This document shows positions 1 to 42,590 of a stretch of DNA of 64,000 nt, in pieces; the first letter of the stretch is position 1, and the number at the start of each line of letters is the position of its first letter. Origin of the DNA: a virus (taxonomy: Duplodnaviria > Heunggongvirae > Uroviricota > Caudoviricetes). A program made the translations under genes and the position numbers. The DNA is taken from IMG/VR virus record IMGVR_UViG_3300035521_000566; one strand, 5' to 3'. Under the pieces are notes generated by a model, which was not told where the DNA came from, searched no databases, and saw only the letters and a list, made by a program, of their open reading frames with translations.

Positions 1-3000
1 ACCATGCTGTGACAGCCACTGCATTTCAAACTTAACAGTTGCACTGTTCTTATCAGTATTACCATTTGCTCTCTCTTGCTTAATAAAGTCCTTACGAGCA
101 GCCATCTTAGCATAATGGTAATCCTGTTTTTCGTTCCAGTCAGCTTCAAAGTCTGCACGAGACATACCATAACTACGAGCTCTTGCCCACGCATTATCTT
201 CGGCTTCCTGATTTGCAGCTGCAATGTTCTCTTTCTTATTCTCAGATGCTCTGAGCTTTCTACCAGCTTCAAGCATTGCTTCTGGAAGTGGAGGATTTGC
301 TGATGCTTTTCTCCATTCGTTTGCAACATCAGTCAATGTCTCACGACGAATGTCGCTGTTATAACTCATATATCTATGCTGTGCTGCTTCTGCTAACTCG
401 GTATCCGTAAGAGCAGGTGTTTCGATATAATCGTGCCAGCTCTCAATGAATTCTGAAACAGCCTTAGACCTAGCCTCATCTGAAGTAGGCTCATCAGCAA
501 GCTGTGTGTCAAGTGCTACAATTGCAACAGAGTCACCATCGAAGTCACCATCGTAACCCTTATCCATAACAGGGTTAATAGCTACACCTACAAGATTCTC
601 GTCAACTTTTACGTGAAGATAACGAACACCAGCATCACGAAGAAGCGGGTCACGCCATACCATGACGCCGTCGCCCTCTTTGACACCAATTGCTTTTGCC
701 ATATCAGCACCGATTGCGACATCCTCGATGTTAAGTCGAGGGTCCGCTGTCCATACTGCAGTAGCTGAACGTGGCAGTGTATTCGTCATCATCTCGGATT
801 TGAAAGCATTATACTTGCTGTCAAACTTGTGCTTTATAATGTCACCTGTAATCTCGTCAAATGCACGCTGTGCACGGCTTCTACTCGTTTCCATTGTCTG
901 TCTGGCTTTCTCTTTATCAGCATCGCTTATATTAGAACTGAGCTTTCTTTCAGCGTCAATATATCTTACTGCGTGCTCATAAATTGTAGCATATTGCTTT
1001 GTGTAATCATGAACACTCTGGGTTCCATCTTCGAAACGTTGTCCGCTTCTCAGATAAGAACTAAGCACTGGTAAACCGTAAGATACTTTTGGCTCACCTG
1101 CAACTGTAGTCTTTGACTTGCTGCCTTCCAGTAAATCTTTATTACGATGAGCTTCAAAGGTCTTTCCATTACGTGTAACAGTCCAAGACTCTTTGTTGTA
1201 TCGAATCATCTTCTCACCTGGAACCTCGATTTCAGTTTCCTCTACCAGACGAGGAATCATTCCGCCGCCTTCAGGAAACTTTAATGGAAATGGAAGTTCC
1301 AAAAAACCACCCTTCTTACCAATCTCTTTGATAAAATCATTCTTAGATTTACGAATATCAAGAGATGTGATAGGTGCTTTGGCATTCTTTCTAACAACAG
1401 TCTTATACTGTGGTTCTGGCATTGCAAAGATATGTCTGCTCTCACCATTATGAGGCTCATAACTATCTTTGATATGACCTGTCTCATCCATATCAAGACC
1501 GCATACAATCATATACTCACGCATATTCTGGAATGCACGGTCGTTATCTGAATAAAATGACTTCTTAATTGCGACAGAACCTTTGGAATCCAAGCCCCAT
1601 CCTAACTGTGCTGATGCAGAACGTCCATTGCCTGCGTCAAACTCAGCTTCGTCATAGATATGAGTCTTCTCATCAACCGTCATATGAGTAACAATAAAAC
1701 GTGCTGTTCCGATAGAGCCTGGAAGTGTCTCGCCCGTTTTAGGATTTACCATATCATGAGTTTCCTGTCTACACTCCAGATAAGAACTTGCATTAAAACG
1801 ACCTACAGCAGCAAACGGAGCACCAACAACCTGAACATCAGGATTTGCTTCAAAGAAGTCATGAACTTCTGCAAGACCTTGCTCCTCTGCTTCTTCTCTT
1901 GTCATAGAAGTGTCGTATATCAGTGGGATAACACCCTTATTACCACCGAAGTCAAGAATCTTATCACCGACCTTCATCGGTCTCATATTACCATCATGGT
2001 CACGAACTGGATTCTCTCTTGCAAACTTATCAGTAACAACGAATCCATCATCAAAGTTCCAACCGCCAAGCGTCATCTGTGCCATCTGAATTGGTTCAGA
2101 CACTTTTTGTGCCTTCAGCAAGTTATTGAATACCATCTGACGTCTATCAAATGGAACATTGTCAGAGAACTGCATATACGGATGCAAGAACAATGCTGTT
2201 CTATCGTCCTTATTATCACTCGGAATAATATGTCCATCCATATCAACTTTGGCACCCTGAACCAGGTATCTTGTGATACCCTGTGTAATACCAGTTGATG
2301 TAGCATCTTTATCAAAGTAGCCATCGCTTTCTTCTGATAAGATTGCCATATTACGTCCGCCAGTAAGTGTCAATGCATCAGAGTTTAAATCATCAACTAA
2401 TATATATGGATTCTTTGTGCTCTGATAAGAAGCATTCAAGGTAGCACCCTCTTTGAACTTCTTGCCATAACTTACACGAGAAGCCTCTGTCTCAAGAATT
2501 GCTTTACGCAAATCATCATCCATACCCTCTTCTCTTGTAATCTCTACATAATCCACTGGATGCCTTACATCGTAGAGCTGTCTGTAAACGTGATTCAAAG
2601 AAGTAGTCTCACCACGAGGGGCTCCTTCGTATCTTGCGAACTCTACAAGCATATCTTTTTTCACATGAGAACGAATAGCTCTAGCCATATGCTGCTCATA
2701 ACCATCAAGTCTGGTTCTTTCTTCAAGAGAAAGATTCTCACCAGGCTTTTGTGGCAGAATTGTTGCTGTATAACCAGGAACGAACATATAGTTATCACCG
2801 TTCGCAAACTTTGTGATAACTCCAGGATATTCTGTTTCAGGAGCAAATATCTGTCCAATATAGCCTGTCATCTCAACAGTATCAAGACTTGCTTTACCTG
2901 CGTCCGCAACAGTCTTATTCTTACCGACTGCCTGTCTTACTTTATACTGAACAACTCCGTTCTCATCAATCAGAATGTCTTTATCTTCAACATAACAGCC

Positions 3001-5049
3001 CGATGTCTGCAATGTATTCTTGATTTCCTCGTTCATCTGACGAATAAACTTACTGGAGTGACTGCCCATTACGGCAGCAGTCTTATCATCAAACTTAAGC
3101 AAACGATTCTTAATAACGCCCGCATAGTAATCACTGCCCTTCATTTCTTCAGAGGTGATACCTGCCAAATCCATAGCGACAATCATTGTGTTATTGTTAT
3201 AATCAATTGACTGCTCCGTATCCATAAAGCTCGATACTCCGACAGGATTGAAACGCTTACCATTTGCATCTGGCTCATACTGACCAATGTTGGCGTCTAC
3301 GCTATCGGCTGCGTGCTGATGAATCTGCTCAACGATAGTACCCTGATAATACTGTGGTGCATCTGATTCTTCATCAAAACGTGAAACCTCGGTTCCAACA
3401 ACTGGAAGTGAAATTTCGCTGATGTCAGATGCCTCTGTAGTAAGAGCATACCAGTATTTCTTTTGGATACCTGCAATATCCTCATCCATAGAATAAGGAT
3501 ATACATAATCAGCGTCATCCCTATGTGCTTCTGCCTGAGCAATCATATCTTCAATGTTGAGTGCGTCCAAATAATTTGTTCTTGCACTCTGAACTGCATT
3601 CTGAAGATAATTGATTGCGTCATCTTTCGGTGATACAGCTTCAGTTGTCTCAGTTGCACGAACACCAAACCACTGTGTTCTCTCTGCTACCGCAGGAGAA
3701 ACAGTAATATTGCCTGCCTTGTACAAATTACCGTTAGCTGCATCATACTGGAATGTTGCATGACCGCTATTACTTGCATAATAAGCTGTATTTGATGCAA
3801 CATAACTGTTGGTATTGCTCTTCTTAGAAACAACTACGTCTGGCTGTCCAACCATCGGAGCACGCTCTTTATTTAATCTGTTCTGATTTATCTTCTCGAC
3901 AGGAATACCCTGCGTAAAGTGAATCAAATCCATAACATTCTTTGCTGTAGCCTGATACGGCTGTGACTCATAACCGCCTGAATTTGCAGGTTTACGCTCA
4001 TCAGTCGAGAATCTGTAATTCATGTTATATGCCATTACTTTGCCAAAGTTAAAGCCAAAGTTGGAACCAGCCTGAGGAACTACAGTAACATTAGAACCAT
4101 AATCATTCAATCTGGCAATCAACTCACCTGAATCACGGCAATAAACACTATAATCATATCCTTCTTCGCTCATCAGTCTAAGTAACTCTGCTGACTGTCT
4201 AAGCTGCTCTTTTGTAGGACGTGTACCACTATGAGCTCTTACATATATATTACGAATATTGCTATATTCGTCTGATGATAAATAAGGCTTGAATGCAGCA
4301 AAACCAGTAACATCATCTATATCATAAAATGGTACAACATTTTTCACTGGATAACTGCCATCAGCTAATGAACCATATCGCTTCGGCATATCGTTCCAAG
4401 ATTTTGCACGACCTCTGTACATATATATGTTAGATGTAACGCCTGTCGGCTGAGCATACCACATACCAACCTGCTCAAACATAGACTTATCTACATAGAG
4501 AATTTCAGAAGGATTCCTTAAGAATGCACTTCTGTCCTGAAATGTCTCGTCATATGGTGATAACGGAATAAAATCTGTTAAACCGTTATTGTTTGACATA
4601 CGGTGCGACTCAAACATATTTGTAGTAATGTCCTTATATGTAGCTTCTGAAATATTTGCTTCTGGAAATACTTCGTTTAGAGTGGCAAGTATCTCAGAAG
4701 TACGATTGTTTGCCTGAGCGACAACGTCTGCATCGGCTGAAGAAAGTGATGCTAAAATATTCGGTCCTGAAAAAGAAAGAACAGCATCATCGTTAAAATC
4801 GAAATGCTTACCCTTCGCAGTGTATGCACGCAACGTATTCAAATATGACTTTGTTGCTGGTTGTTCTCTCAACTTGTTAATCCATTGACGGCGAATATTA
4901 CGAGCTTCACTTACAGTAATAGGTTTCTGATGTGCGTCTAAACGCTGTTCATTAACCTTTTGCACAGCCAACGCAAAAACATACTCGTTTGCCATTTTCT
5001 GATATACATTTTTGCTTGGAAGTGCATCATAAGATTTGTAATCTGACAT
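1..5049 (-). CDS. giant multisubunit-RNAP-like protein (fused beta / beta-prime homolog), N-terminal 1683 aa; ORF continues beyond window start
   Basis: ATG at 5049-5047 with SD AAAGGAG ~8 nt upstream. Hand translation found no in-frame stop down to nt 1. Motifs KVGDKILDFGGNKGV (nt ~1929-1970; cf RpoB GDKxAGRHGNKGV), ARFIVTHMTVDEKTHIY (nt ~1660-1710; cf RpoB LKLHHLVDDKMHAR), VMVWRDPLLRDAGVRYLHVKVDENLVGVAINPVMDKGYDGDFDGDSVAIV (nt ~531-700; cf RpoC NRAPTLH...NADFDGDQMAVH). Confidence 0.6.
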   Translation of the reverse strand, partial: MSDYKSYDALPSKNVYQKMANEYVFALAVQKVNEQRLDAHQKPITVSEARNIRRQWINKLREQPATKSYLNTLRAYTAKGKHFDFNDDAVLSFSGPNILASLSSADADVVAQANNRTSEILATLNEVFPEANISEATYKDITTNMFESHRMSNNNGLTDFIPLSPYDETFQDRSAFLRNPSEILYVDKSMFEQVGMWYAQPTGVTSNIYMYRGRAKSWNDMPKRYGSLADGSYPVKNVVPFYDIDDVTGFAAFKPYLSSDEYSNIRNIYVRAHSGTRPTKEQLRQSAELLRLMSEEGYDYSVYCRDSGELIARLNDYGSNVTVVPQAGSNFGFNFGKVMAYNMNYRFSTDERKPANSGGYESQPYQATAKNVMDLIHFTQGIPVEKINQNRLNKERAPMVGQPDVVVSKKSNTNSYVASNTAYYASNSGHATFQYDAANGNLYKAGNITVSPAVAERTQWFGVRATETTEAVSPKDDAINYLQNAVQSARTNYLDALNIEDMIAQAEAHRDDADYVYPYSMDEDIAGIQKKYWYALTTEASDISEISLPVVGTEVSRFDEESDAPQYYQGTIVEQIHQHAADSVDANIGQYEPDANGKRFNPVGVSSFMDTEQSIDYNNNTMIVAMDLAGITSEEMKGSDYYAGVIKNRLLKFDDKTAAVMGSHSSKFIRQMNEEIKNTLQTSGCYVEDKDILIDENGVVQYKVRQAVGKNKTVADAGKASLDTVEMTGYIGQIFAPETEYPGVITKFANGDNYMFVPGYTATILPQKPGENLSLEERTRLDGYEQHMARAIRSHVKKDMLVEFARYEGAPRGETTSLNHVYRQLYDVRHPVDYVEITREEGMDDDLRKAILETEASRVSYGKKFKEGATLNASYQSTKNPYILVDDLNSDALTLTGGRNMAILSEESDGYFDKDATSTGITQGITRYLVQGAKVDMDGHIIPSDNKDDRTALFLHPYMQFSDNVPFDRRQMVFNNLLKAQKVSEPIQMAQMTLGGWNFDDGFVVTDKFARENPVRDHDGNMRPMKVGDKILDFGGNKGVIPLIYDTSMTREEAEEQGLAEVHDFFEANPDVQVVGAPFAAVGRFNASSYLECRQETHDMVNPKTGETLPGSIGTARFIVTHMTVDEKTHIYDEAEFDAGNGRSASAQLGWGLDSKGSVAIKKSFYSDNDRAFQNMREYMIVCGLDMDETGHIKDSYEPHNGESRHIFAMPEPQYKTVVRKNAKAPITSLDIRKSKNDFIKEIGKKGGFLELPFPLKFPEGGGMIPRLVEETEIEVPGEKMIRYNKESWTVTRNGKTFEAHRNKDLLEGSKSKTTVAGEPKVSYGLPVLSSYLRSGQRFEDGTQSVHDYTKQYATIYEHAVRYIDAERKLSSNISDADKEKARQTMETSRSRAQRAFDEITGDIIKHKFDSKYNAFKSEMMTNTLPRSATAVWTADPRLNIEDVAIGADMAKAIGVKEGDGVMVWRDPLLRDAGVRYLHVKVDENLVGVAINPVMDKGYDGDFDGDSVAIVALDTQLADEPTSDEARSKAVSEFIESWHDYIETPALTDTELAEAAQHRYMSYNSDIRRETLTDVANEWRKASANPPLPEAMLEAGRKLRASENKKENIAAANQEAEDNAWARARSYGMSRADFEADWNEKQDYHYAKMAARKDFIKQERANGNTDKNSATVKFEMQWLSQHG

Positions 5050-5081: not shown

Positions 5082-5110
5082 ATTATATATCCATATATGG
5101 AGATTGTCAA
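5082..5110 (-). promoter_or_regulatory. class A promoter: TTGACA-ATCTCCATATATGGATA-TATAAT, drives the giant RNAP-like gene
   Basis: Exact -35 and -10 consensus with 17-nt spacer read on the minus strand; start codon 33 nt downstream. Confidence 0.6.
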
Positions 5111-5210: not shown

Positions 5211-5305
5211 TTACTTTTTATTTAGAAAAAGATGCAAAAAGATGCAAAAAGATGCAAAAAGATGCAAAAAGATGCAAAAAGATGCAAAAAGATGCAAAAA
5301 GATGC
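5211..5305. repeat. tandem 10-bp repeat AAAAGATGCA x9 (phased A5 tracts, predicted intrinsically curved DNA) ~100 bp upstream of the class A promoter of the RNAP-like gene
   Basis: Direct reading of the sequence; period 10 bp matches the helical repeat. Confidence 0.6.
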
Positions 5306-5335
5306 AGAGCCGAAGCTCTGCACCCAAAAAATATA
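5306..5335 (-). terminator. rho-independent terminator (GCAGAGC-TTCG-GCTCTGC + U-run on minus strand) after gene 5370..6890
   Basis: Hairpin followed by T-rich tract on the transcribed strand. Confidence 0.5.
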
Positions 5336-7538: not shown

Positions 7539-7567
7539 ATTATATCTCCATATATGGAGATTGTCAA
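7539..7567 (-). promoter_or_regulatory. class A promoter: TTGACA-ATCTCCATATATGGAGA-TATAAT
   Basis: Upstream of gene 6967..7503. Confidence 0.6.
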
Positions 7568-7621: not shown

Positions 7622-10600
7622 TTATTTCGTCTTGACCTGCTTTACATTTGACCAGCTGCCATAAACTTTCTGACCGTTAACTGTCTTATATGCTCGAACT
7701 CTCACATAATAAGTCGTCTTAGCCTTAAGGTTCTTAATAGTAACCGATGTGCCTGTTATTGCTTTCTTACCTGGCAATCTCATATTTGACTGAGTAGAAT
7801 ACTCTATCTCGTATCCTGATGTACCAGACACTTTATCAAACGAAACCTTGAACTGCTTTGCACCAGCCACAAGCTTGACATTTGCAACCTTTGCCACATT
7901 TATCTTAGACCACTTAGCATACACAGTGATATTGCCAGTGCTTCCCTTTGTAACATTGGTAAGTCGCTTGGTCAAAGCCTTATCAGTATACCAGCCTTTG
8001 AACTCATATCCATATCGTGTTGCTGGATATAATGTAAAGGTCTTTGTATCCTTTGTGTATGATGTTAAATTAAGTGAATTGTTCTTGGTTCCACCATTTA
8101 ACACATAAGTTATGCTGTACTTACCAGAAGTCAGCTTTGCAATTGTCTTAGTCTTAGTTGTTCTGCAAATATTGCATGTGTAGGTCATAATACCAGTCGA
8201 TGACTCTGTAGCCTTCTTTGTGACCTTACCGCTATTCCACTGATGAGTGCTCAACTTTACAATACTCTTACCATTTGAAATCAGCTCACCACAGGTTTTG
8301 CAATATGTATCACCTGTATAGCCTTCGGACTTACATGTAGCATCAAACTTATTCCTAATTTCAGTAGATGCGTGCTTGCATATTACTTTCAATTTTGAAA
8401 TACTCTCTGTATAAGTGTCACCACAATTAGAACAAGTAAATGTTCTAATGCCTGCAGACTCTGTTGTAGCCTGTACGGTAACAACATCGGTGTAAGTATG
8501 TCCTAATGCTTTAATAACTGTTCCAGTTGTTAAAATTTCGTTGCATAGCGTACACTTTATATCGCCTGCATATCCGTTTTCAGTGCAAGTAGCACCTTTT
8601 ACATTTACAATCTCTGTCTCAGAATGAACAGCTAACTTAGGTATCTGAACATTCTTCACAGTATCGCAATTGAGACACTTGCATGTTATTACACCAGAAG
8701 CTTTACAGGTAGGTTCTGTTACAACAGTACCATCATCCCATATATGCTGCAGCTTAGCAATATTTGCTGTCTTCTGCTCTCCACATATAAGACAGGTATA
8801 AAGCTTTGTACCATACTCGCTACAAGTAGGCTGTGACGCTACTCTTGAAACATAAACACAAGTGTGTTCTTCAATCGGAGTGTCGGGTTCAGGACTCTCT
8901 GATTCTGATGGCAACTTTGCAACTTCTTCGGTCTTAGTAATCTCACATACTGCACAGGTATATGTCTTAATACCTGTTGATGTTGTTGTAGGCTGTTTTG
9001 TGATTGAGCCGTTGTCCCAAGTATGAGTAGTAAGCTTTGCAATAGACTCTGTTCTTGTATCATGGCACTCGCTACAAGTGTATGTCTTAACACCAGCCTC
9101 TTTGCAAGTAGCTTGCTTTGTAACCTCGCCAGCATTCCAAGTATGTGCTGAAGCATCTACTGGAACTTCTTCGGTCTTTGTCTCATTACAACCTGAGCAA
9201 TGATAAGTTCTAACACCCTTCTTTGCACAGGTAGGTTCTGCTGTAACGGTACCACTGTCCCATGCGTGCTGATGTGTCAACTTTGCAACGGACTCTGTTT
9301 TTGTTGTACCACATACAGTACAAGTATATGTCTTAATACCTTCTGATGTCTCAGTCGGTTGCGTAGTAACTACGCCGTTGTTCCATGTATGTTCTGTTAA
9401 CTTAGCTATCTGCTCTGTCTTAGTTGTCTTGCAAACAGCACAGGTGAAAGTCTTTATTCCGAAATCCTTGCATGTTGACTGTGTAGTAACTATACCATCA
9501 TCCCAAGTATGATTTACTTTTGAAATAGCAGTTACTTCAGTCTTAGAATCACATCTGGAACAATGCTTTGACTTTGAGCCTTCTTGGCTGCAAGTAGGTT
9601 CTGTATCAACCGTAAATTCAGTTGAATAATCATGACCCAAAGACTGAATATCTTCAGTTGTGGTAGTATGACAAACAGTACATTCCTTCGTCAAAATACC
9701 GTTATCTTCACAAGTAGCTTCTTTCGTAACGGTACCTGAGTTCCAAGAATGAGTAGTCAGCTTCGGAATAACAGTTACCTCAGTCTTAGAATCGCATGAC
9801 ATACAGTGCTTTGATTTTGAGCCTTCTTGATTACAATTCGGCTCTACATCAACTGTAAAATCACTTGAATAATTATGCTCTAACTTCGGAATATTGTCTC
9901 TTGTTTCTGTTGTGCCACAAATCGTGCAAGTGTAAGTTGTCTGACCATATGCAGAACAAGTTGCTTCTCGTGTCACTTCTCCATCATTCCAAGTATGCTC
10001 ACCAGTAGCCGATATTTCTTCGGTCTTAGTAATTCCACAGATTTCGCAAGTATAAGTTCTTAAGCCAGGCTTACATGACGGTGTCACCGTAACCTCACCA
10101 TCATTCCACTTATGACCTGTATGCGTAATCACTTCAACTGTAGCAGATGAACAGCCTTCGTTTGAACACTTAAACTCTTTATAACCATCTTCTTCGCATG
10201 TAGCATCAACAACATCGCCTGCTATTGTATAATTATGCAACGTGCTGTCAGCTGGAATAACTTCTGTATAAGAGTGTCCACAATCACAATAATAAGCCTG
10301 TGAACCTGTTTTAAAACAAGTTGGATTTACAGTAGCACCCTTATTATAGTTATGGACTTCATAACCCTCATATAAAGTGATACTTGCACGATTATTATTC
10401 CAATCATCTAAGTCAAAAAGCGTTGTACGAGCTTCATCTGTATACCACTTCGTAAAGTGATATAATTCGTTGTCTGCAAAATCAACAGTAGGAAATTCTG
10501 CATTTCCGTCAATAGTAAATGATGCAGACTTGTCATATTCAGAATTAGAGTCTGATGAGTCTTTAATCAAGACACCTGAATTACCTTCAGCATCATTTTG

Positions 10601-11983
10601 TACAATAAATGCTATAGCATACTTCTCATTTGCCTTCTGAGCATATTCAATATAATTATCTAAATCTGCCAATGACTCCTGCATACTGCTTACATAACTA
10701 TCAGCTGAGTCTGTTAATGTCGCAGACAGACATGCATTAGCATAAACAGAAAGATTCTCAATAATTTCATTTAGCTCAGGTGAAATATCAGAAGTATCAT
10801 AAAAATCGCAAATATGCTTCACATTTAATGCAAACACATAATCATCTACAATATCAGATGGTGATGCAGACATAAGAGTTGACAATAAAGAGCTAATATC
10901 ATCAGTCTTATCATGATTATACTTTAAATAGCCTTGCAACTGATACACATAAGATATTGCATCAATATCTGAATCAGTAACAACATAATCGTATATATAC
11001 TTTACCAATGTTGCCATCTCATCCTGATATTCATATGTGTTACTATTCGTTTCGTTAATAAATGCACTAACTTTGACACCCCACTTACGAATCTCTAAAT
11101 CATCATCTGTTGACAAAGCATCTAACAAAGCATCACAATTCGCAAAATCATAACCTTGTTTTGATTCATAAAAGTAGTTCAAATATGCTTTTATCTGATT
11201 CACATAAATTTCATCATCTGTTGTATCAAAAGATGAATCGTCTGAGATAGACACATTTAATATATTATCACAGAGTTTCAGGATACCATTATCACTATCA
11301 TAAATATAAGAATAAGAATAATGTGATGAACTGATTGCATCGAGCGTATCCACATATTCAATTACTTTTAAAGCCCACAACATTCTTTCAGCTTCTGTAG
11401 AAGTGCTATCATCGAGCAACTCACTTACATTGCTGAAATCATGCGAAACGACGACTTGTTTAGTATAATCAGAAGCATCAGTGGCACCCAAATCATTAAG
11501 ATAGATATTGAAATCCATATCTGAGTATCTGTCGGAATAAATCAGATTGGTACCGTGACTTGCATTATAGTTAGCTGTTGCAACTGTCGTGTCAACGCTG
11601 CCGTTGAACCAATGAGTTTCGTAATTTATGTCCAGCAATAAATTGTAAAACTCTAAATAAGCCTGAACATGATTCACACAACTGTTAATTATGTTCTCAT
11701 CACTTGAATCAATACCTGTTTCACATACTGTTTTTGCATCACTTTGATATTTAAAATCATCATGATTGTCAAAAAATGTATTGGCATCACTTAACCACTT
11801 CGTTTTTTCTGCAAGTGAATCAGCTGACTCTAAACTATTTAATAGTTCACTAATTTCACTAACAGTTTGTACTTCTTCTGCTGTTACTGCTGCTTGAACT
11901 GGTGTAGCTATATGCAACATACCCATAAGTAACGCTACAATCAATGTCCAGCTCAGCACACGTTTTGTCTGAGACATAGGCAT
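7622..11983 (-). CDS. large secreted repeat protein: N-terminal signal peptide, about 14 tandem ~44-aa Cys-containing repeats (TYTCxxCGxTxTE...H.W..G.VT...TC), Listeria-Bacteroides-type repeat and Fn3-like C-terminus; adhesin or receptor-binding candidate
   Basis: ORF 1453 aa; signal peptide LIVALLMGMLHIATPVQA; periodic Cys4 repeats visible in translation; C-terminal YSITYVLNGGTKNN...GYEFKGWYTD...ITVYAKW matches the LB-repeat pattern. Confidence 0.65.
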   Translation of the reverse strand: MPMSQTKRVLSWTLIVALLMGMLHIATPVQAAVTAEEVQTVSEISELLNSLESADSLAEKTKWLSDANTFFDNHDDFKYQSDAKTVCETGIDSSDENIINSCVNHVQAYLEFYNLLLDINYETHWFNGSVDTTVATANYNASHGTNLIYSDRYSDMDFNIYLNDLGATDASDYTKQVVVSHDFSNVSELLDDSTSTEAERMLWALKVIEYVDTLDAISSSHYSYSYIYDSDNGILKLCDNILNVSISDDSSFDTTDDEIYVNQIKAYLNYFYESKQGYDFANCDALLDALSTDDDLEIRKWGVKVSAFINETNSNTYEYQDEMATLVKYIYDYVVTDSDIDAISYVYQLQGYLKYNHDKTDDISSLLSTLMSASPSDIVDDYVFALNVKHICDFYDTSDISPELNEIIENLSVYANACLSATLTDSADSYVSSMQESLADLDNYIEYAQKANEKYAIAFIVQNDAEGNSGVLIKDSSDSNSEYDKSASFTIDGNAEFPTVDFADNELYHFTKWYTDEARTTLFDLDDWNNNRASITLYEGYEVHNYNKGATVNPTCFKTGSQAYYCDCGHSYTEVIPADSTLHNYTIAGDVVDATCEEDGYKEFKCSNEGCSSATVEVITHTGHKWNDGEVTVTPSCKPGLRTYTCEICGITKTEEISATGEHTWNDGEVTREATCSAYGQTTYTCTICGTTETRDNIPKLEHNYSSDFTVDVEPNCNQEGSKSKHCMSCDSKTEVTVIPKLTTHSWNSGTVTKEATCEDNGILTKECTVCHTTTTEDIQSLGHDYSTEFTVDTEPTCSQEGSKSKHCSRCDSKTEVTAISKVNHTWDDGIVTTQSTCKDFGIKTFTCAVCKTTKTEQIAKLTEHTWNNGVVTTQPTETSEGIKTYTCTVCGTTKTESVAKLTHQHAWDSGTVTAEPTCAKKGVRTYHCSGCNETKTEEVPVDASAHTWNAGEVTKQATCKEAGVKTYTCSECHDTRTESIAKLTTHTWDNGSITKQPTTTSTGIKTYTCAVCEITKTEEVAKLPSESESPEPDTPIEEHTCVYVSRVASQPTCSEYGTKLYTCLICGEQKTANIAKLQHIWDDGTVVTEPTCKASGVITCKCLNCDTVKNVQIPKLAVHSETEIVNVKGATCTENGYAGDIKCTLCNEILTTGTVIKALGHTYTDVVTVQATTESAGIRTFTCSNCGDTYTESISKLKVICKHASTEIRNKFDATCKSEGYTGDTYCKTCGELISNGKSIVKLSTHQWNSGKVTKKATESSTGIMTYTCNICRTTKTKTIAKLTSGKYSITYVLNGGTKNNSLNLTSYTKDTKTFTLYPATRYGYEFKGWYTDKALTKRLTNVTKGSTGNITVYAKWSKINVAKVANVKLVAGAKQFKVSFDKVSGTSGYEIEYSTQSNMRLPGKKAITGTSVTIKNLKAKTTYYVRVRAYKTVNGQKVYGSWSNVKQVKTK

Positions 11984-12042
11984 CCCTTCTTTCTGATAAA
12001 TTTTATATTACTAGCTTCCAGATGGTGCTAATACTATATCTT

Positions 12043-12071
12043 ATTATATATCCATATATGGTAAAATGCAA
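12043..12071 (-). promoter_or_regulatory. class A promoter variant: TTGCAT-TTTACCATATATGGATA-TATAAT
   Basis: Upstream of gene 7622..11983; -35 diverged but palindromic spacer retained. Confidence 0.5.
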
Positions 12072-12105
12072 TTGAATAATCATTCAGCAATGATTAAAAT
12101 AAATA

Positions 12106-12181: not shown

Positions 12182-13384
12182 TTATGATTCTAACTGCTTC
12201 TTCATCTGCTGGTCAAACTTGCCGTTTGCAAATCTCCATGATTTCTGTGAAGCCAGGAATCTGTAAAACTCATCTGTTACAGTAAATGAACCAAAGCTTG
12301 TAAGCTCAGACTTATCAATATCACCTTCGCCATAAACACTGGTATCGCCATCTTTCGCAGCCTGATTTAATGCATTCAAATCGGCTGAAGAATCAGCTCT
12401 TAAGATATATGGCTCTCCGTGAACACCATAGAGATTACCGTTTCTACAAGTAAAGTAGCCTGTGTCATTCCACATGTCACCCTTTACTTCAGTATAAGCC
12501 TTAATAATCTCTTTGTCGAGACTATGGCTGATACCTGTAGGAGAAACCAGCATATCAGGTGAAATCATACCGCCAGCAAACTTCTTTTCAGAATTAGCTT
12601 CGTAATTCTTCATTTGCTTTGCAATTTCCTGCAACTGCTCGGTATTCTCTTCAGCTGAACCCCACATATCATCCTCATCATCGAAATCGTAATCAAAGTC
12701 CTCGAACTCCTCTTCGTCATCGGTGTTCATATTACGGACATATGTATTGATAATATCCATAATTTCATCAGCATAGTTATCAGAATCCAACTGCTCAATA
12801 TCATAATCCGTATACTCATAAGCTGTCTGATACAGGTCTTTAGCAGCCTGTGCCTGATATGCCTGATTCATACGCTTATCAAGCATCTTCTTGAAATCTG
12901 GCTGATTCTTACGTACATCGAAATCAATCGCACTGGAAAGAGTAGGAATTGTCTGTAATGTATACTCTTTACCTGGTTGTGTGATTGTATTCTTGAACAA
13001 TCGCCATGACATCGGCAGAATCGTCTCGTTTCTATTCCAGATAGGTGAGTCACCTGCACGGAATATAATACTGTTACGTTCTGAAATGAATGCCATATCA
13101 TTGTAACTGATAACTGGTACTTCTTTGGTTGTCATCGTATAAGTTGCCTTGCCTTCGTTGGCACTCATACCCTTGAAGATTGTTTCCATATCTCTTGTTA
13201 CAGACTTAGAATCTGTAAATGATTTATGCGTTATACCAGACATTTTCTGCAAGGTATCAAGCATACTATCATCAGTCGACTTCAGGAATACGATGTTACT
13301 TGTGTTTCCTTGCACTATCTTATCTACGCTATCGCCGTAGACATCTTTCAATTGCTGTAATGTTTGTAATATTAAAGATAGCAA
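12182..13384 (-). CDS. type IV coupling protein (VirD4/TraG/TrwB family) C-terminal fragment (putative exon 2) with long acidic tail
   Basis: N-terminus SLILQTLQQLKDVYGDSVDKIVQGNTSNIVF aligns with T4CP motif VVLGLQSISQLRSTYGEDGAQTLLGNLNN; acidic tail DEEEFEDFDYDFDDEDDMW resembles F TraD C-terminus. Confidence 0.55.
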   Translation of the reverse strand: MLSLILQTLQQLKDVYGDSVDKIVQGNTSNIVFLKSTDDSMLDTLQKMSGITHKSFTDSKSVTRDMETIFKGMSANEGKATYTMTTKEVPVISYNDMAFISERNSIIFRAGDSPIWNRNETILPMSWRLFKNTITQPGKEYTLQTIPTLSSAIDFDVRKNQPDFKKMLDKRMNQAYQAQAAKDLYQTAYEYTDYDIEQLDSDNYADEIMDIINTYVRNMNTDDEEEFEDFDYDFDDEDDMWGSAEENTEQLQEIAKQMKNYEANSEKKFAGGMISPDMLVSPTGISHSLDKEIIKAYTEVKGDMWNDTGYFTCRNGNLYGVHGEPYILRADSSADLNALNQAAKDGDTSVYGEGDIDKSELTSFGSFTVTDEFYRFLASQKSWRFANGKFDQQMKKQLES

Positions 13385-13588
13385 TAGGTAAGAATTTGAA
13401 GTTATCTCTATCTTTTCCCCTGCTCCACACCGTGCATGCGACTTTCACCGCACACGGCGTTCCATCACATTTCTGTGACTTGTGTCCATTCCTACTTCTC
13501 TCATTACAAGAGCTATCATCAGTTCGAACACTACTTTTCAATATCCATTAAACTGCTTATTATTCTTCGTCAGTAAACAAACCTGAAT

Positions 13589-13609
13589 TGAATATTGAAA
13601 TATGCTAAA
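13589..13609. repeat. 21-bp inverted repeat TTGAATATTGAAATATGCTAA, left copy (partner at 14829-14849) flanking the endonuclease ORF
   Basis: Perfect 21/21 reverse-complement match. Confidence 0.6.
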
Positions 13610-14756
13610 TATGACTATCTAAATACTTAGTGATTTTATCTTGTGTATCATATGTATACTTAATTTCTAACAATGGAATATTCAATGAAACTGCATAATC
13701 TTTCTTTAATTTATCGTGTTTCTTTTGAATATCAAATCTTGCTTCACCGCCAAACCATTTCACTGGTCTATAATGCTGTTCGCCTTGACATTCAATAAAC
13801 ATATATGGCTTATCATCTTTATAAATTAAAAAATCATACGATAATTTACCATTACCAACACCAAGTAAGTCGTCGTAAGTCTTTTGAACCTCATGCATAA
13901 TGCCTTTGTCATCTAAATATTGTCTCACATAAGACTCCATATAAGGTTGAGCTTTGCATCCACACGACTTACTAATACCTGACTTTAACATATTGCCTGC
14001 TACAATATGCTTTTGATGACAAATGCACTCACATTCCCACATCATTGCCCTGCCACCGCCTGGATAGAATCTGTCATCAACACGTCTTAAAACTGTCCAA
14101 TACCCAAATACACGACCTGTTAAATCTTCATATGTGGCTGCCTTTGCCTGTCTTTCCTTACGATAACAACCACACGATACTGATTTACCAGACAATAAAG
14201 CTTGTTCAGAAACATCTCTGACAGTTCCGCATTCACATTTACAATGCCACATTTTCACACGACGGTTATATTTATAAACACCATCGACTCTATACTCGAC
14301 ATACCATCTTCCAAATGTTTGGTCAGATAAATCTCTGTCAACAGACAATCGTTCAGATTTTAAACATCCGCATGATAATGTTGTACCTGATTTTAATGAA
14401 TGTGCTCTTAAATCTTTTTCTGTACCACAGTCACATCGACAATGCCACATTGTTGCTTTTTTACCAGATGGTTCTATTACAGAATCAGTTCTATATAACA
14501 CAGTCCAACGACCAAATCGTTGGTTTGATAAATCTTCAAGATTAACACCCTTTAAACTTTCTTTACGGGAACATCCACAACTCTTAACACCACCGTTTTT
14601 TAATGATGATGCTCTTACAACAGTTATATTTCCACACTCACACTGGCATTTATACATTACATTGATTCTGCCACTGGATGTAATCTGATTATCTGTTCTA
14701 TGCAACACATGCAACTTTCCAAATGTCTTGTCACTTAAATCTTCAAATTTTCTCAT
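13605..14756 (-). CDS. free-standing endonuclease-like protein: four Cys4 zinc-ribbon repeats + C-terminal Vsr/DUF559-like (PD-(D/E)xK superfamily) nuclease domain; homing-endonuclease candidate
   Basis: Four repeats of the form W(H)CxCxCG...SCGC...FGRW...YRTD; C-terminus YDFLIYKDDKPYMFIECQGEQHY matches the DUF559/Vsr-like pattern DF....IExxGxxH. Confidence 0.55.
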   Translation of the reverse strand: MRKFEDLSDKTFGKLHVLHRTDNQITSSGRINVMYKCQCECGNITVVRASSLKNGGVKSCGCSRKESLKGVNLEDLSNQRFGRWTVLYRTDSVIEPSGKKATMWHCRCDCGTEKDLRAHSLKSGTTLSCGCLKSERLSVDRDLSDQTFGRWYVEYRVDGVYKYNRRVKMWHCKCECGTVRDVSEQALLSGKSVSCGCYRKERQAKAATYEDLTGRVFGYWTVLRRVDDRFYPGGGRAMMWECECICHQKHIVAGNMLKSGISKSCGCKAQPYMESYVRQYLDDKGIMHEVQKTYDDLLGVGNGKLSYDFLIYKDDKPYMFIECQGEQHYRPVKWFGGEARFDIQKKHDKLKKDYAVSLNIPLLEIKYTYDTQDKITKYLDSHI

Positions 14757-14828
14757 TTATAACATCCTCCACCTGCTGTAGTTTATGTAATAAATATACC
14801 ATAATTTGAAGCAAAAATCAATAAGTTT

Positions 14829-14849
14829 AGCATATTTCAATATTCAATT
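14829..14849. repeat. 21-bp inverted repeat, right copy
   Basis: Reverse complement of 13589-13609. Confidence 0.6.
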
Positions 14850-15305
14850 ATCAAGGTTCGCTGAATATCTTTCCAAGTTCCGTTATATCTATCTTTACAT
14901 ATTTACCCTTAGGTCTTTGCTCTAGTCCTGCCTATCTTGATTATGCCTGTAACATAATAAGGAGTTTCATAAGTTCAATTTTTACTAATCCTCAATAGAC
15001 TTAATTATATTTCTATAATTTGCAACTTAAGAACCGTACATTCGCAAATTCGTCAGATATTCATCATTCTAACCATAGGTAATTTATAGACATCCGACAT
15101 ATTAGTCACCATATAATCAATATACTTTCAAACAGGCGGATTCTAATCACTTTTGAACCAATTATACTGATACACATCATACTTAGGCTTCTGTCTGTCG
15201 ACTTTAACGAGCTTCATACAAATCAATGCATGTCGTAGCTTAATGTGAATATTTCAAGGCGTTACCCTATCATTCTATTCATTGATATAACAGTTCGCAT
15301 AATAA

Positions 15306-18300
15306 CTATGCGGCAAAACTTTTCATTTTGCAACTTGTCGCACTAAACTGTTGCTCCTGACCAAGTCCGATGGAAAGCATAGTCTCGAATCCTGAAATAC
15401 CATGTCCTTCTGACTGTAAGTTACCCAACTCATCTAACATAAATCGTGTTTTATAAAGTGGCTTCTGATTACTTTTAGTCATATATGACTGGTCGAAGTT
15501 CAAGTCAACCAACTGCTTAATCAGAATCAAAATCAACTTTGCATATTTCATCAAATGTGGCGGCGTTACCAAGAACACCATCTTAGGCTTCTCTGCGTAA
15601 CGAGCCATCGTACGAATAATTGCATTCGTCTTTACGGTACCACGTTCTGCTCTACCTGTAATATCAACAATCTTATCCTGGTCAAATGTTGTCTTACCCT
15701 TACGGTAAGTAATCTTGCCAGCTTTGTCCTTCACAGGTCGCAACTCTGTTAAGATACCGTTTTTAACTATCTTGTCACCCAGTACAGGGTCTGTTACGTA
15801 CTTCCTGCCGTCCAAAGAAGTCTGATAACTCTTCTTGAACTGGAAGTAAAACTTACGGATTAACATTCCTGTCTGTGGGTTCACTATTTCAAGCTTAATA
15901 TAAGCTGTCTCATTCGGGTATTTACCCTTGAAATAATACTTAGCCCATCCTTCACGAGTGACAAGGTCTTCGTGATAGAACTCTTTGCCAAGCTCATGCT
16001 CGAATCCTGGGTCATCGTAACTCATCCATTTTGCCTGCATACCAATCAGGTGATAGTTATGCACAAAATCTGAGTTGAAACGAACGCCAAGTCTTCGAGG
16101 GAATGACATACCTGCCAAATCTACATTCTGGGCTGGTGTACCCGATGTCAAAGTCGAAATTGTAGGGTCTGTAAAAAACGACATCGCTGTAATAGCAATT
16201 CCGTATACAGACGCCATCATCTTTTCTGCACCTGCCATAGCTTTCAAAGCATTGTTGGCATTGGCTACCAGCGTTCTCATTGAGTTTCTAGGAAGAGCAT
16301 CTGTTGCATTAAAGTAAAGAGTTAATAAGTCAGCCTCAGGCTTATCTTCCCACAACTTAGACTGATTTTCAACTTTTGATACTTCAGCATCATAATCTTC
16401 CTGAGACAAATCGTCTAATTCATGATTCTTTACTTTATTTGCAAATTCTACCGACGGATTCTTAAGCTTTTTACTTGTCAACTGTACGAACAACTGATAA
16501 GTGTTGTAAAGAGTAACCTTACCCCACATCTCGTCCAGCTTTGACTCCAAAATCTTATCATCCATCTTTGTTCGTTCTGCAAACAGTCGAAGCTCTTTTT
16601 CTTCTTCCAGATAAAAGTCAATCAAACCGTAAGCGGCACGCTTGAAAGCATTATTTGCTGCATTGGGCCACACGGGGTCGTCACCACCATCAAGTGGGAA
16701 GAATACATCTGCAATGTTTTCTACATACATCGCAGCTTTGGTGAAGTCTCCCTCCCGTGCAGCATCTGCAGCCATTCCCAGAGGGTTATAAATATCGGTT
16801 TTCATAGCGTTAATCAGATTGAACTGGACTACCTGAAAACCTCTAACAGTTGCCCTGACATAATTCTTAACCAAAAGCTCACCCTTCGGGTCATTGACAA
16901 CCATATTATTTGGTCTTCTTTCTCTTGTCCACATATCAAGTGTAGGTTCAATTACAGTCTGACCTTTACCAGCTCTGGTGATAGCAAGAACCATCGTATT
17001 TACGGGTGCTGTATCTACAATATATGCTCCTGCTGGTCGCTGAGGTTCGTAATACGGAAACTCCCAGTCAGCGTTAATCAAATCTGCAACTGTATTGAAT
17101 TTGCCTAACTTTTCTCGGTCAGAACCATCTGGATTGTATGGAATCTTCGTTGTATCGTAATACTTTCGAATTGTCTTATCCTTTGGAGCACCTGATGCCT
17201 GAAATAAATCTTCCATGAATTCAGTATCTATAATAGGTACCTCGTCATATAATGGATTTCCATCATCATCTAATAAGACTTCCCCTTTGTAATACTCGAT
17301 GTCACCATCTTCATCCAGAATGTCTGTTTCTGCCCTCTTTGAAAGTTTGACTTTCTTCAAGCCCTTATTCATAAGAGCCATATGGGAAATCATACTGGAA
17401 AACTGCACATCCGACGTGGCTCCTACATCTGGGAACCAATCAAACTTTCTTTGTACTTCTTCTGGCAAAGCAATATGTTGGTCATTCTGATATTGGTTAA
17501 TATCAGCTGTATCAGAAAGCATATTCTGTGCCTCTAAGTTACGCATCATTGCTGTATAAATCAAAGCAAACGTAATAGAAGAACAAATAAGTGAAAATAA
17601 CAGCTTTCCTACAGTTGGCTTCCAGCTGATACCTAAAGTATCAGATACAGATTTTGAACTGCTATCATCACTGCTATCATCACTGGTCTCATCATCTGAA
17701 GCATTAACAGGTGTTGAGGAAAATGTGCCAGTTGACAAATCATAATAACTTGAAATAGTTCCCGCAGGACTACCGTCCAGCTCTGTAATCTTTACATCAG
17801 GATGATTTGGGCATGTGTAAACATTCTCCATACCTTCTGTACTAACTGACCACGTATCAATGACTTCACCTGTGGCTGTGTTCGTTACATTATACACGCC
17901 AAACTTTTCTTTCACAATCTGATATGCTGTAGAATTACTATCTGAAACATTGTCGCTTGACGACTCAGTACCTTTAAATTCTCCAGTGTGCATATCATAA
18001 TAAGCCGAAATAGTTGATATTGCACTGCTATCCTGCTCAATAAGTTTGGCTGATGGATAATTAGGACATGTATAAGCATTCTCCGTACCACTTGAATCAA
18101 TGGTCCATGTGTCAATAATTTCGCCTGTTTCAATGGATTTTACATAATAAATTCCATATCCTTCGTCAGACCTTTCAACTTGATACATTGCAGTGCCTGA
18201 TGAATCTTCGTTTCCTCCTTCTTCGTTGATAGGGTTCCCATCTTCATCCACAGACGTTGTTGTATCTGTTGTTACGACGGCTTGATTCATCAAACTGTTT

Positions 18301-18515
18301 AATCCAGGTGACACAATACACGCAATCGCATATGATAATACTGCCACAATCGCTGTGATTACCAGACAAATGATAATACGACCTGTCTTACCCTGCTTAG
18401 CCTGTAAGTGACCACGCTCTAACTGCTGGTCTTCATACACATCACGGTATCGCATGGTATCCTTAGCCTGCTGCTCGCTAATCAGGTCCCAATTTCGTTT
18501 TGCCATTTGCAACAC
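15306..18515 (-). CDS. type IV coupling protein VirD4/TraG-like ATPase, N-terminal part (putative exon 1), with duplicated extracytoplasmic domain
   Basis: VLAITRAGKGQTVIEPTL...MVVNDPKGEL (T4CP Walker A region), RFMLDELGNL (Walker B); TM - two ~65-aa repeats (GYGIYYVKSIETGEIIDTW...YTCPN) - TM - ATPase. Confidence 0.65.
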   Translation of the reverse strand: MLQMAKRNWDLISEQQAKDTMRYRDVYEDQQLERGHLQAKQGKTGRIIICLVITAIVAVLSYAIACIVSPGLNSLMNQAVVTTDTTTSVDEDGNPINEEGGNEDSSGTAMYQVERSDEGYGIYYVKSIETGEIIDTWTIDSSGTENAYTCPNYPSAKLIEQDSSAISTISAYYDMHTGEFKGTESSSDNVSDSNSTAYQIVKEKFGVYNVTNTATGEVIDTWSVSTEGMENVYTCPNHPDVKITELDGSPAGTISSYYDLSTGTFSSTPVNASDDETSDDSSDDSSSKSVSDTLGISWKPTVGKLLFSLICSSITFALIYTAMMRNLEAQNMLSDTADINQYQNDQHIALPEEVQRKFDWFPDVGATSDVQFSSMISHMALMNKGLKKVKLSKRAETDILDEDGDIEYYKGEVLLDDDGNPLYDEVPIIDTEFMEDLFQASGAPKDKTIRKYYDTTKIPYNPDGSDREKLGKFNTVADLINADWEFPYYEPQRPAGAYIVDTAPVNTMVLAITRAGKGQTVIEPTLDMWTRERRPNNMVVNDPKGELLVKNYVRATVRGFQVVQFNLINAMKTDIYNPLGMAADAAREGDFTKAAMYVENIADVFFPLDGGDDPVWPNAANNAFKRAAYGLIDFYLEEEKELRLFAERTKMDDKILESKLDEMWGKVTLYNTYQLFVQLTSKKLKNPSVEFANKVKNHELDDLSQEDYDAEVSKVENQSKLWEDKPEADLLTLYFNATDALPRNSMRTLVANANNALKAMAGAEKMMASVYGIAITAMSFFTDPTISTLTSGTPAQNVDLAGMSFPRRLGVRFNSDFVHNYHLIGMQAKWMSYDDPGFEHELGKEFYHEDLVTREGWAKYYFKGKYPNETAYIKLEIVNPQTGMLIRKFYFQFKKSYQTSLDGRKYVTDPVLGDKIVKNGILTELRPVKDKAGKITYRKGKTTFDQDKIVDITGRAERGTVKTNAIIRTMARYAEKPKMVFLVTPPHLMKYAKLILILIKQLVDLNFDQSYMTKSNQKPLYKTRFMLDELGNLQSEGHGISGFETMLSIGLGQEQQFSATSCKMKSFAA

Positions 18516-20892: not shown

Positions 20893-20945
20893 AGTATAAA
20901 TCCCTTTCTGTAATATTTTTTTTTTGTACATCATTGCGTCAGTAT

Positions 20946-24002: not shown

Positions 24003-24243
24003 AATCGTAATCTCCTTTCAGATATAAACATTGAATTTAAGCTACTAATGGAGTGTTCTCCATATGTATGTAACTTCTAAATTGAATAGTACACTATTTT
24101 TAATATTATGTCAAGTGCTTTTTATTATAAAAATTTTAATTTTTTTTTAATAAAAATTTGGAGACTAGATTTCGGCTAAAATCATACGCTTCTACTCTAT
24201 CCATACTATAATAATATTATAATATAGTACCTATCTGAAAATA

Positions 24244-24272
24244 ATCATAGTACCATATATGGAGATTGTCAA
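24244..24272 (-). promoter_or_regulatory. class A promoter: TTGACA-ATCTCCATATATGGTAC-TATGAT
   Basis: ~240 nt upstream of gene 23460..24002, so a long leader. Confidence 0.45.
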
Positions 24273-24329
24273 CATCTTACAGAAATTTTAAGCATTATGC
24301 ACAAAGCACACTTTTGACACACCACACCT

Positions 24330-30979: not shown

Positions 30980-31004
30980 ATTAGCTTCCTCTCTTTGTCA
31001 TTTA

Positions 31005-31034
31005 TTATTAGTTTATTATATATCCATATATGGA
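31005..31034 (-). promoter_or_regulatory. class A promoter: TTGACA-AAGCTCCATATATGGATA-TATAAT (18-nt spacer)
   Basis: Upstream of gene 30182..30979. Confidence 0.55.
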
Positions 31035-31092
31035 GCTTTGTCAATATTTGCATAGAAAAGCCTACGGCTCAAGTGAGCTGTAGGCTCTTTTT

Positions 31093-34267: not shown

Positions 34268-34321
34268 ATTATATATCCATATATGGAGATTGTCAATATG
34301 TAATCCATATATGGTATTTTT
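34268..34321 (-). promoter_or_regulatory. class A promoter: TTGACA-ATCTCCATATATGGATA-TATAAT plus an adjacent partial second copy (TAATCCATATATGGTAT at 34301-34317)
   Basis: Upstream of gene 33129..34235. Confidence 0.55.
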
Positions 34322-36299: not shown

Positions 36300-36314
36300 T
36301 ATTAAATCACTCCT

Positions 36315-37947: not shown

Positions 37948-37976
37948 TTGACAATCTCCATATATGGTGATATACT
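37948..37976 (+). promoter_or_regulatory. class A promoter in plus orientation: TTGACA-ATCTCCATATATGGTGA-TATACT
   Basis: Upstream of gene 38019..38378. Confidence 0.55.
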
Positions 37977-42196: not shown

Positions 42197-42270
42197 GTAC
42201 CCTGCAAGAGACTCGAACTCTCAACCAAAGCCTTAGAAGGACCATGCTCTAATCCATTGAGCTAACAGGG
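42197..42270 (-). tRNA. tRNA-Arg (anticodon TCT)
   Basis: Hand-folded cloverleaf: acceptor ACCCTGT/GCAGGGT, T-loop TTCGAGT, anticodon loop CTTCTAA. Confidence 0.6.
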
Positions 42271-42277
42271 TGTGTAA

Positions 42278-42353
42278 GTATCTCCGACAGGATTCGAACC
42301 TGCGACAAACCGACGTTCGTAGCGTCGTGCTCTTGTCCGTTGAGCTACGGAGA
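42278..42353 (-). tRNA. tRNA-Arg (anticodon ACG)
   Basis: Acceptor ATCTCCG/CGGAGAT, anticodon stem CGACG/CGTCG, loop CTACGAA. Confidence 0.6.
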
Positions 42354-42361
42354 TATGTAAA

Positions 42362-42432
42362 CAGGCGATAAAGGAATCGAACCTCTGCCCTCAGGGTCAG
42401 AACCTGATTTGCTACCATTACAACAATCGCCT
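42362..42432 (-). tRNA. tRNA-Gln (anticodon CTG)
   Basis: Acceptor AGGCGAT/ATCGCCT, anticodon stem TCAGG/CCTGA, loop TTCTGAC. Confidence 0.55.
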
Positions 42433-42437
42433 ATAAG

Positions 42438-42509: not shown

Positions 42510-42512
42510 TAA

Positions 42513-42584: not shown

Positions 42585-42590
42585 ATTGAG

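Follow-up and report, generated by a model that had tools for sequence, protein, structure and literature searches.

Giant gene and module layout

We analysed a stretch of 64,000 nucleotides (IMG/VR record IMGVR_UViG_3300035521_000566, labelled Caudoviricetes), referred to here as the window, which ends inside a giant minus-strand gene. The open reading frame (ORF) of this gene starts with the ATG at 5049-5047, preceded by an AAAGGAG ribosome-binding site at 5066-5060 (10 nt 5' of the ATG), and the translation of the window continues through 1,683 codons with zero stops until it runs off the edge at nt 1. The single uninterrupted ORF of more than 1683 amino acids (aa) described in a first-pass annotation, made by a model from the letters alone, was thus recovered. 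The two closest homologs are 2,509 and 2,483 aa long and share 57-58% identity with the entire query; therefore, about 800 C-terminal residues of the giant protein lie outside the window. Homology, fold and conservation of catalytic residues show that the ORF encodes most of a predicted single-chain two-barrel RNA polymerase (RNAP) homolog of ~2,500 aa. Its parts are as follows.

1-5049, minus strand: N-terminal 1,683 residues of the ~2,500-aa single-chain two-barrel RNAP homolog (from the open frame and homolog lengths)
2890-5049, minus strand: family-specific N-terminal module, residues 1-720 (AF2 pLDDT 77.4; moderately conserved within the family)
1300-2832, minus strand: module like RNAP beta (second-largest subunit), residues ~740-1250, with a flap-less beta-type double-psi beta-barrel
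2020-2085, minus strand: beta GYNFED-type block MAQMTLGGWNFDDGFVVTDKFA (MAQMTLGGWNFDDGFVV), residues 989-1010, aligned to Thermus beta VAIMPFDGYNFEDAIVISEEL
1918-1977, minus strand: beta GDK....GNKG block, KVGDKILDFGGNKGV within residues 1025-1044, with lysines K1030 and K1038; aligned to beta RKLQVGDKLANRHGNKGVVAKIL; invariant
1591-1848, minus strand: beta C-terminal blocks NP..P..R.N (residues 1068-1092), TGE, VDEKTH and GR..Q..W.L
961-1080, minus strand: beta' lid / clamp-helix-like block YGLPVLSSYLRSGQRFEDGT, residues 1324-1363, aligned by profile to beta' ~228-300 (LPVLPPDLRP...)
709-834, minus strand: beta' switch-2 block KHKFDSKYNAFKSEMMTNTLPRSATAVWTADPRL, residues 1406-1447, aligned to beta' and Rpc1
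511-666, minus strand: beta'-type double-psi beta-barrel with WRDP 1465-1468 (R1466, P1468) and DFDGD 1502-1506 (D1502, D1504, D1506; metal-binding)
1-489, minus strand: start of a long helical lineage-specific insertion, residues 1521-1683, between the DFDGD barrel and an SGAKG segment (long helices in the model)

Homology to both large RNAP subunits

Searches with single sequences gave weak signals. The window protein alone matched Pfam PF00623 (Rpb1 domain 2) over residues 1456-1517 at E=9.8e-5, with 23.1 bits against a cutoff of 25.3. It had no match in PHROGs or NCBIfam, and a phmmer search of PDB with the single sequence reached only E=0.006 at best. Homolog P0001 clears the PF00623 threshold with 31.7 bits, and the more distant, compact homolog P0003 (~1,900 aa) has a near-threshold match to Rpb2 domain 6 located exactly over GDK..GNKG. 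Because these searches were weak, profiles from family alignments were needed. We used a family profile from a 30-sequence alignment (A1), to which all statements on invariance refer, and a profile limited to the upstream half (A2).

Against PDB, A1 retrieved cellular beta'/Rpb1/Rpc1 chains at E~1e-12. The match consists of three collinear stretches: the lid/clamp helices with switch 2, the DFDGD barrel, and the SGARG region, the last of which aligned weakly to beta'. A2 retrieved RNAP beta/Rpb2 in 57 of its 59 matches (best E=5.5e-6) and aligned both halves of the beta-barrel, GGWNFDDG with GYNFED as well as GDK..GNKG. The family matches both large RNAP subunits at the level of fold. The first-pass annotation had stated that spurious motif matches would overturn it; the family profiles instead matched RNAP beta' and beta significantly and in collinear order.

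Eight residues are invariant throughout two-barrel RNAPs, as listed by Ruprich-Robert & Thuriaux (PMC2919709). In the giant protein they correspond to R1466, P1468, D1502, D1504, D1506, D1001, K1030 and K1038, all of which are (nearly) invariant in A1; D1001, in the GYNFED-type block, is the equivalent of Rpb2-D837. Across the family, D[FYW]DGD is retained in 150 of 152 members and GDK..[NS]K in 135. The protein hence has the features of the two-barrel RNAP superfamily, namely a beta' barrel with DxDGD and R-x-P and a beta barrel with two lysines and an aspartate. Together, these results show a two-barrel RNAP fold with an intact and strongly conserved active site, so that the protein is a predicted polymerase.

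The motifs that had been pointed out beforehand were all located. Those of the beta C-terminus, placed around residue 1030, lie where they were claimed to be, are invariant in the alignment and go far beyond chance; apart from GDK....GNKG, they comprise PKTGE (residues 1103-1107), FIVTHMTVDEKTHIY (1118-1132) and GNGRSASAQLGWGL (1140-1153). N1069, P1078, R1084 and N1086 are likewise invariant, and the beta C-terminal blocks are kept in 10 proteins from 2 phyla. Around residue 1500, within a beta'-like module that spans residues ~1290-1520, the claimed RpoC double-psi beta-barrel is represented by VMVWRDPLLRD (1462-1472) and INPVMDKGYDGDFDGDSVAIVAL (1491-1513), with a significant beta' profile match. 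Four further conserved blocks had gone unnoticed: beta GYNFED-type, beta NP..P..R.N, beta' switch-2 and beta' lid/clamp-helix. The N-terminal ~1000 residues had been described as free of motifs. This was true of residues 1-720, for which Foldseek against PDB gave 0 matches at E<=1e-3 and Pfam, PHROG and NCBIfam searches gave none, but not of the part further downstream, where a beta-like module begins at ~740 and the MAQMTLGGWNFDDGFVV block occupies residues 989-1010.

The proposed far divergence from cellular rpoBC was borne out, as was the beta-then-beta' order. Scores stay below the curated RpoB/RpoC thresholds: the window protein does not reach the PF00623 cutoff, and a Streptomyces homolog obtained 21 bits against the NCBIfam rpoB cutoff of 896. 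NFDD and GDK are separated by only 31 residues (in those of ten aligned relatives where both motifs fit the strict patterns), and about 250 residues separate the equivalent motifs of E. coli beta. The beta barrel therefore lacks the SBHM/flap insert of cellular-type RpoB, through which cellular beta binds sigma region 4.

Homologs P0001 and P0002 have a distance of ~583 aa between DFDGD and SGAKG, compared with ~130-150 aa in most members sampled; therefore, the stretch after residue 1521 is a lineage-specific insertion. Following SGAKG, the family consensus VxYATAVKSFGTGVAGxxSQRG and TYPVTQxxLQxKHDP resembles, by eye only, the bridge helix, trigger loop and beta' region H. We treat this possible bridge helix and trigger loop, which would lie outside the window in this lineage, as a lead only.

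Relation to known fused RNA polymerases

The giant protein closely resembles descriptions of the NCgl1702 family. NCgl1702, from Corynebacterium glutamicum ATCC 13032, is a giant single chain of 2,169 aa, compared with ~1,800-2,900 aa here; both families have the beta-then-beta' order, occur on mobile elements and are abundant in Actinomycetota. Within the NCgl1702 family, only the two barrels, switch 2 and the funnel region are conserved (PMC2919709, PMC5449584), and these blocks are the same ones that our profiles align. Like the window family, it has no SBHM/flap insert (PMC7824862). As described (PMC2919709, PMC7824862), the family is a giant single chain of beta-then-beta' order, without SBHM and on mobile elements, and the window family is all of these. 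We infer from this match by description, which all described features fit, that the two families are the same. Unlike the NCgl1702 description, the window lineage carries a helical insertion of ~450 aa after the DFDGD barrel. The NCgl1702-family literature covered here (Iyer & Aravind 2012 fell outside its scope) describes no function, no experiment and no linkage to a coupling protein or AAA+ ATPase. A literature search for two-barrel or double-psi beta-barrel RNAPs together with conjugation returned nothing relevant, and a survey of giant proteins of conjugative elements lists only primases and no two-barrel RNAP (PMC5512222).

The same beta-then-beta' order in one polypeptide is known from the Rpb2::Rpb1 fusion Orf6 of the yeast killer plasmid pGKL2 and from Helicobacter rpoB::rpoC fusions (PMC2919709). 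The killer-plasmid enzyme retains a flap (SBHM) insert like cellular beta (PMC7824862). In contrast, the giant protein has no flap, and it carries about 720 unrelated N-terminal residues.

Family size and distribution

A first, word-indexed homolog search found 3 proteins only; the whole family came from an exhaustive search with residues 760-1530. This search returned 437 clusters (at 50% identity) with E<=1e-3, of which 332 had E<=1e-30, and nearly all of the 150 members listed are ~1,800-2,900 aa long. Species-representative genomes contain at least 73 loci, on plasmid-sized contigs as well as chromosomal ones. Carriers in the Actinomycetota include many Streptomyces, Arthrobacter, Kribbella, Microbacteriaceae, Actinomyces and Bifidobacteriaceae, and those in the Bacillota include Clostridia, Lachnospiraceae, Paenibacillus and Evansella; no Corynebacterium was among the best 80 matches of the genome scan. 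Furthermore, 13 sequenced plasmids from Streptomyces, Gordonia, Rhodococcus, Lactococcus and Staphylococcus encode a homolog, annotated in all cases as 'hypothetical protein'. Homologs in other mobile elements, for which the first-pass annotation had proposed a search, thus exist on plasmids and integrated elements of both phyla.

The family has reportedly featured in comparative papers since 2003. We find that it is large and that, on conjugative plasmids and integrated elements, its gene almost always neighbours that of the coupling protein. A fused beta-beta' polymerase that is near the cellular enzyme yet flap-less also bears on the evolution of multisubunit RNAPs and offers a single-gene version for study.

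Association with a conjugation cassette

Apart from the giant gene, the window contains the following genes of an element for conjugation and replication.

53491-55620, minus strand: MobL-family relaxase (PF18555, E=2.2e-55)
12182-18515, minus strand: VirD4/TraG-type coupling protein gene, interrupted by a group II intron at about 13378-15298 (PF02534, PF12696; NCBIfam VirD4-like CD1115 family)
18628-20934, minus strand: conserved 768-aa protein, cassette partner (homolog in 59/65 loci)
20946-22739, minus strand: ClpA/ClpB/ClpV-type double AAA+ ATPase, cassette partner (Pfam AAA_2, AAA, ClpB_D2-small; NCBIfam ClpV/ClpA, E~1e-68)
25453-27123, plus strand: D5-type primase-helicase

The presence of a MobL relaxase marks the element as conjugative or mobilisable. 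The window also encodes a lysozyme-type hydrolase, and the 768-aa protein has no family match in Pfam, PHROG or NCBIfam.

Gene order was counted in the 65 genome loci whose upstream flank spans the full 10 kb. The coupling protein precedes the giant gene on the same strand in 63 loci, the ATPase in 60 and a protein of ~800 aa in 59, with all three present in 58; a conserved gene lies downstream of the giant gene in 59. The AAA+ ATPase, the ~800-aa protein, the coupling protein and the giant protein follow each other in the same order in the closest relative and in plasmids of Gordonia, Streptomyces and Rhodococcus. Six plasmid records were inspected; in five of them, which represent four genera, the coupling protein is followed by the giant protein. 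Two Staphylococcus plasmids encode a ~730-750-aa protein and then the coupling protein, followed after two more genes by the giant protein; their annotation shows no AAA ATPase. These gene orders show the giant gene to be a fixed part of a predicted conjugation cassette in Bacillota and Actinomycetota, on plasmids as well as in integrated elements.

Two insertions were observed in this part of the window. At 7622-11983 (minus strand), a gene absent from relatives intervenes between those for the coupling protein and the giant protein. It encodes a surface protein of 1,453 aa, possibly a mating adhesin, with internal repeats of ~120/243 nt, an fn3 domain and a Listeria-Bacteroides repeat. The group II intron in the coupling-protein gene is recognised by Rfam RF02004 (D1-D4, 15083-15298, 104 bits) and RF00029 (13378-13462, 62 bits). 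Its ORF at 13605-14756 (minus strand) matches HNH/homing-endonuclease PHROGs (E=2e-63) and has no reverse-transcriptase domain in Pfam; group II introns without a reverse transcriptase are unusual in bacteria. The relative L001 likewise has its coupling protein split into two called ORFs, and a LAGLIDADG domain, likely an intein, lies within its Clp-type ATPase.

Promoters of the giant gene and the element

Several repeated elements were found upstream of the giant gene and elsewhere in the window.

5082-5110, minus strand: giant-gene promoter, sigma-70-type TTGACA-17-TATAAT (12/12 consensus match), with the palindrome CCATATATGG in the spacer
7539-7567, 34268-34296 and 57249-57277, minus strand, and 37948-37976, plus strand: further copies of this 29-bp promoter cassette
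12029-12079, 24230-24280 and 31001-31045: three weaker copies of the palindrome promoter
5226-5306, no strand: eight exact 10-bp A-tract repeats AAAAAGATGC (TRF: 8.1 copies, 100% match)

The sigma-70 promoter that had been noticed near the giant gene is therefore a perfect one. The 29-bp cassette TTGACA-ATCTCCATATATGGAKA-TATAAT occurs in 5 copies, whereas 0 are expected in the window. Palindrome promoters head the giant gene (5082), the genes for 178/506-aa proteins (7539) and the gene for the candidate adhesin (12029), and also the ATPase/coupling-protein operon (24230) and the operon running into the relaxase (57249). The operator-like palindromic spacer suggests a single repressor-controlled transfer regulon that would include the giant gene.

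A second class of sigma-70-type promoters, TTGATAAATGAG-N11-TATAAT, has about 5-9 copies (~32537, 40692, 41732, 55655, 58546 and others, minus strand), one of them directly upstream of the MobL relaxase gene. All repeated cassettes are sigma-70-type, and no repeated motif of another type that the element's own polymerase could use was found in the window. Hence, the window is evidently transcribed by the host RNAP with its primary sigma factor. The A-tract repeats lie upstream of the giant-gene promoter and downstream of the terminator hairpin of the upstream gene (5300-5325); their phasing indicates that this DNA is probably intrinsically bent.

Proposed role of the giant RNA polymerase

The linkage of the giant gene to the coupling protein across two phyla leads us to connect its presumed RNA synthesis with DNA transfer. 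A role other than general transcription is suggested because all repeated promoters are sigma-70-type and because the protein has no flap for sigma region 4. We tentatively favour a model, to which we give slightly less than an even chance, in which the giant RNAP makes RNA on the transferred single strand of the element, as primers and/or first transcripts, after being made in the donor within the transfer regulon. The host primary-sigma RNAP would produce the giant protein in the donor as part of this regulon. The giant RNAP would then synthesise RNA on the transferred strand, either as primers for the complementary strand or as first transcripts before the host RNAP can act. Possibly, the adjacent AAA+ ATPase would unfold the giant protein and the coupling protein would pass the unfolded chain to the secretion channel, so that it could act in the recipient. 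In that case it would parallel, in conjugation, both the Sog/TraC1 primases and the virion RNAPs of phages. RNA polymerisation, a preference for single-stranded templates and transfer through the secretion channel are all proposals at this stage.

There are precedents for such delivery: conjugation transfers primases along with DNA (PMC5512222), and phages inject RNAPs (PMC10770324). We propose as functional analogues only the primases Sog of R64 and TraC1 of RP4 and, in polyvalent proteins, the primase domains (PMC5512222): large RNA-synthesising proteins, encoded by the element and linked to its transfer system, that act on incoming single-stranded DNA. Sog and TraC1 have unrelated folds (Toprim or archaeo-eukaryotic primase), and their transfer has been shown by experiment, whereas that of the giant protein is hypothetical. 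The broader idea, that Gram-positive conjugative elements deliver their own cellular-type RNAP into the recipient for sigma-independent, rifampicin-insensitive RNA synthesis on the incoming strand, seems rather doubtful to us. If it were true, the delivered enzyme would be to plasmids what virion RNAPs are to phages. It would also solve, independently and in a second way, the task that falls to Sog/TraC1-type primases and single-strand promoters in Proteobacteria.

Several observations weigh against the model of RNA synthesis on the transferred strand. The conserved gene order can be explained simply as a conserved transfer operon. In the window, the coupling-protein gene is followed by three others before the giant gene is reached. 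The element has its own D5-type primase-helicase and thus less need for a primer-making RNAP. A protein of 2,500 aa is a demanding secretion substrate. The C-terminal family profile had no significant match in PDB, its best RNAP match being Rpo1C at E=0.71. Moreover, the beta' clamp-helix-like hairpin is retained in the model, so that the enzyme might still depend on some initiation factor.

The main rival to this model, which we consider less likely, is a donor-side, element-specific transcriptase like YonO. Made by the host RNAP, it would recognise double-stranded promoters of its own and from them transcribe the element's long transfer or late operons. YonO of the Bacillus subtilis prophage SPbeta is, by experiment, an active and processive DNA-dependent RNAP (PMC5467207), and it is proof that a single-chain two-barrel enzyme can transcribe a long late operon. 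Like the giant protein, which is known from sequence, it belongs to a mobile element and has no flap. In the window, almost all genes of the 64 kb lie on one strand, the giant gene has its own strong host-type promoter, and profile alignment and model indicate that the clamp-helix-like hairpin is kept, all of which would suit such a transcriptase. However, every repeated intergenic motif belongs to one of the two sigma-70-type classes (about 13 or more copies), including those of the relaxase and coupling-protein operons, and the family is tied to the coupling protein and the AAA+ ATPase rather than to any particular cargo. YonO itself is a protein of ~100 kDa from prophage late genes, with cellular homology only in the two barrels. 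The giant protein differs from it in being about three times larger (~2,500 aa), in aligning also at beta' switch 2, lid and SGARG, and in its conjugative context. The interpretation in the first-pass annotation is partly supported. It was upheld for the fused RNAP homolog; its temporal switch from the host RNAP to the element's own enzyme comes close to this YonO-like role, which the host-type promoters throughout the window weaken.

We regard as improbable a reading in which the element would be a phage or phage-plasmid and the giant protein an RNAP carried in the virion and injected along with the DNA, as for gp66 of the crAss-like phage phi14:2 (PDB 6VR4) or gp96 of Thermus phage P23-45 (PDB 8H2M/8H2N; PMC10770324). 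These are virion proteins with similarity essentially around DxDGD, whereas the giant protein has significant profile similarity to both beta and beta', the very distinction from crAss-like virion RNAPs drawn at first sight. None of the 30 window ORFs tested matched a capsid, portal, terminase or tail-tube family, the window being part of the element. The giant protein had no tblastn match in 50,697 phage records, while its homologs occur on sequenced plasmids. In favour of a viral origin, 40 relatives lie on contigs of 40-250 kb labelled viral in IMG/VR (loci L082-L121). Yet the coupling protein is upstream in 31 of the 36 such loci with a full flank, and one of them (L103) is on the same contig as a locus from an Actinomyces metagenome-assembled genome (L010). 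We read the viral label on these cassette contigs as a classifier call on large plasmid-like DNA; the contigs are misclassified plasmids or integrative and conjugative elements, or else belong to a lineage of phage-plasmid hybrids. The IMG/VR matches had raised the idea of a phage, which is unlikely for this element given its relaxase and coupling protein and the lack of structural genes in the ORFs tested.

Two last explanations are very improbable: a two-barrel DNA polymerase with PolD-like chemistry that copies the transferred strand directly, and a catalytically dead relic serving as a structural or scaffold part of the transfer apparatus, for which the huge size, the about 720 unexplained N-terminal residues and the long helical insertion might speak but in which one would not expect every catalytic residue to be invariant in members down to 30-40% identity from two phyla.

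If transfer or establishment depends on the enzyme, it would add a new step to Gram-positive conjugation and offer a selective target against plasmid spread. The hosts (Streptomyces, Arthrobacter, Actinomyces, Staphylococcus, Lactococcus and gut Clostridia) matter for antibiotic production, the spread of resistance and the microbiome. Cultured hosts with sequenced plasmids exist (the 55-kb S. aureus plasmid NZ_CP150776, L. cremoris pJM1A and Gordonia pGKT2, for example), which makes the role directly testable.

Other features of the window

An ATP-dependent DNA ligase is encoded at 51872-52894 (minus strand); with its own ligase and the D5-type primase-helicase, the element has a substantial replication and repair toolkit. 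Two adjoining DNA methyltransferase genes at 35520-37298 (minus strand), one for an EcoRI-type adenine methylase (PF13651, E=6e-125) and the other matching phrog_67, have no recognised nuclease partner and may encode orphan, anti-restriction methylases. The window contains 30 tRNA genes in two arrays (42197-42934 and 48242-50799, minus strand), covering 19 amino acids with no Trp, plus one with a 4-base anticodon call. Conjugative elements do not usually carry such a near-complete set of tRNAs, which is more typical of very large phages. Finally, an exact 15-nt repeat of 7.7 copies (45229-45344, minus strand) lies in frame within a 271-aa ORF at 44798-45613.

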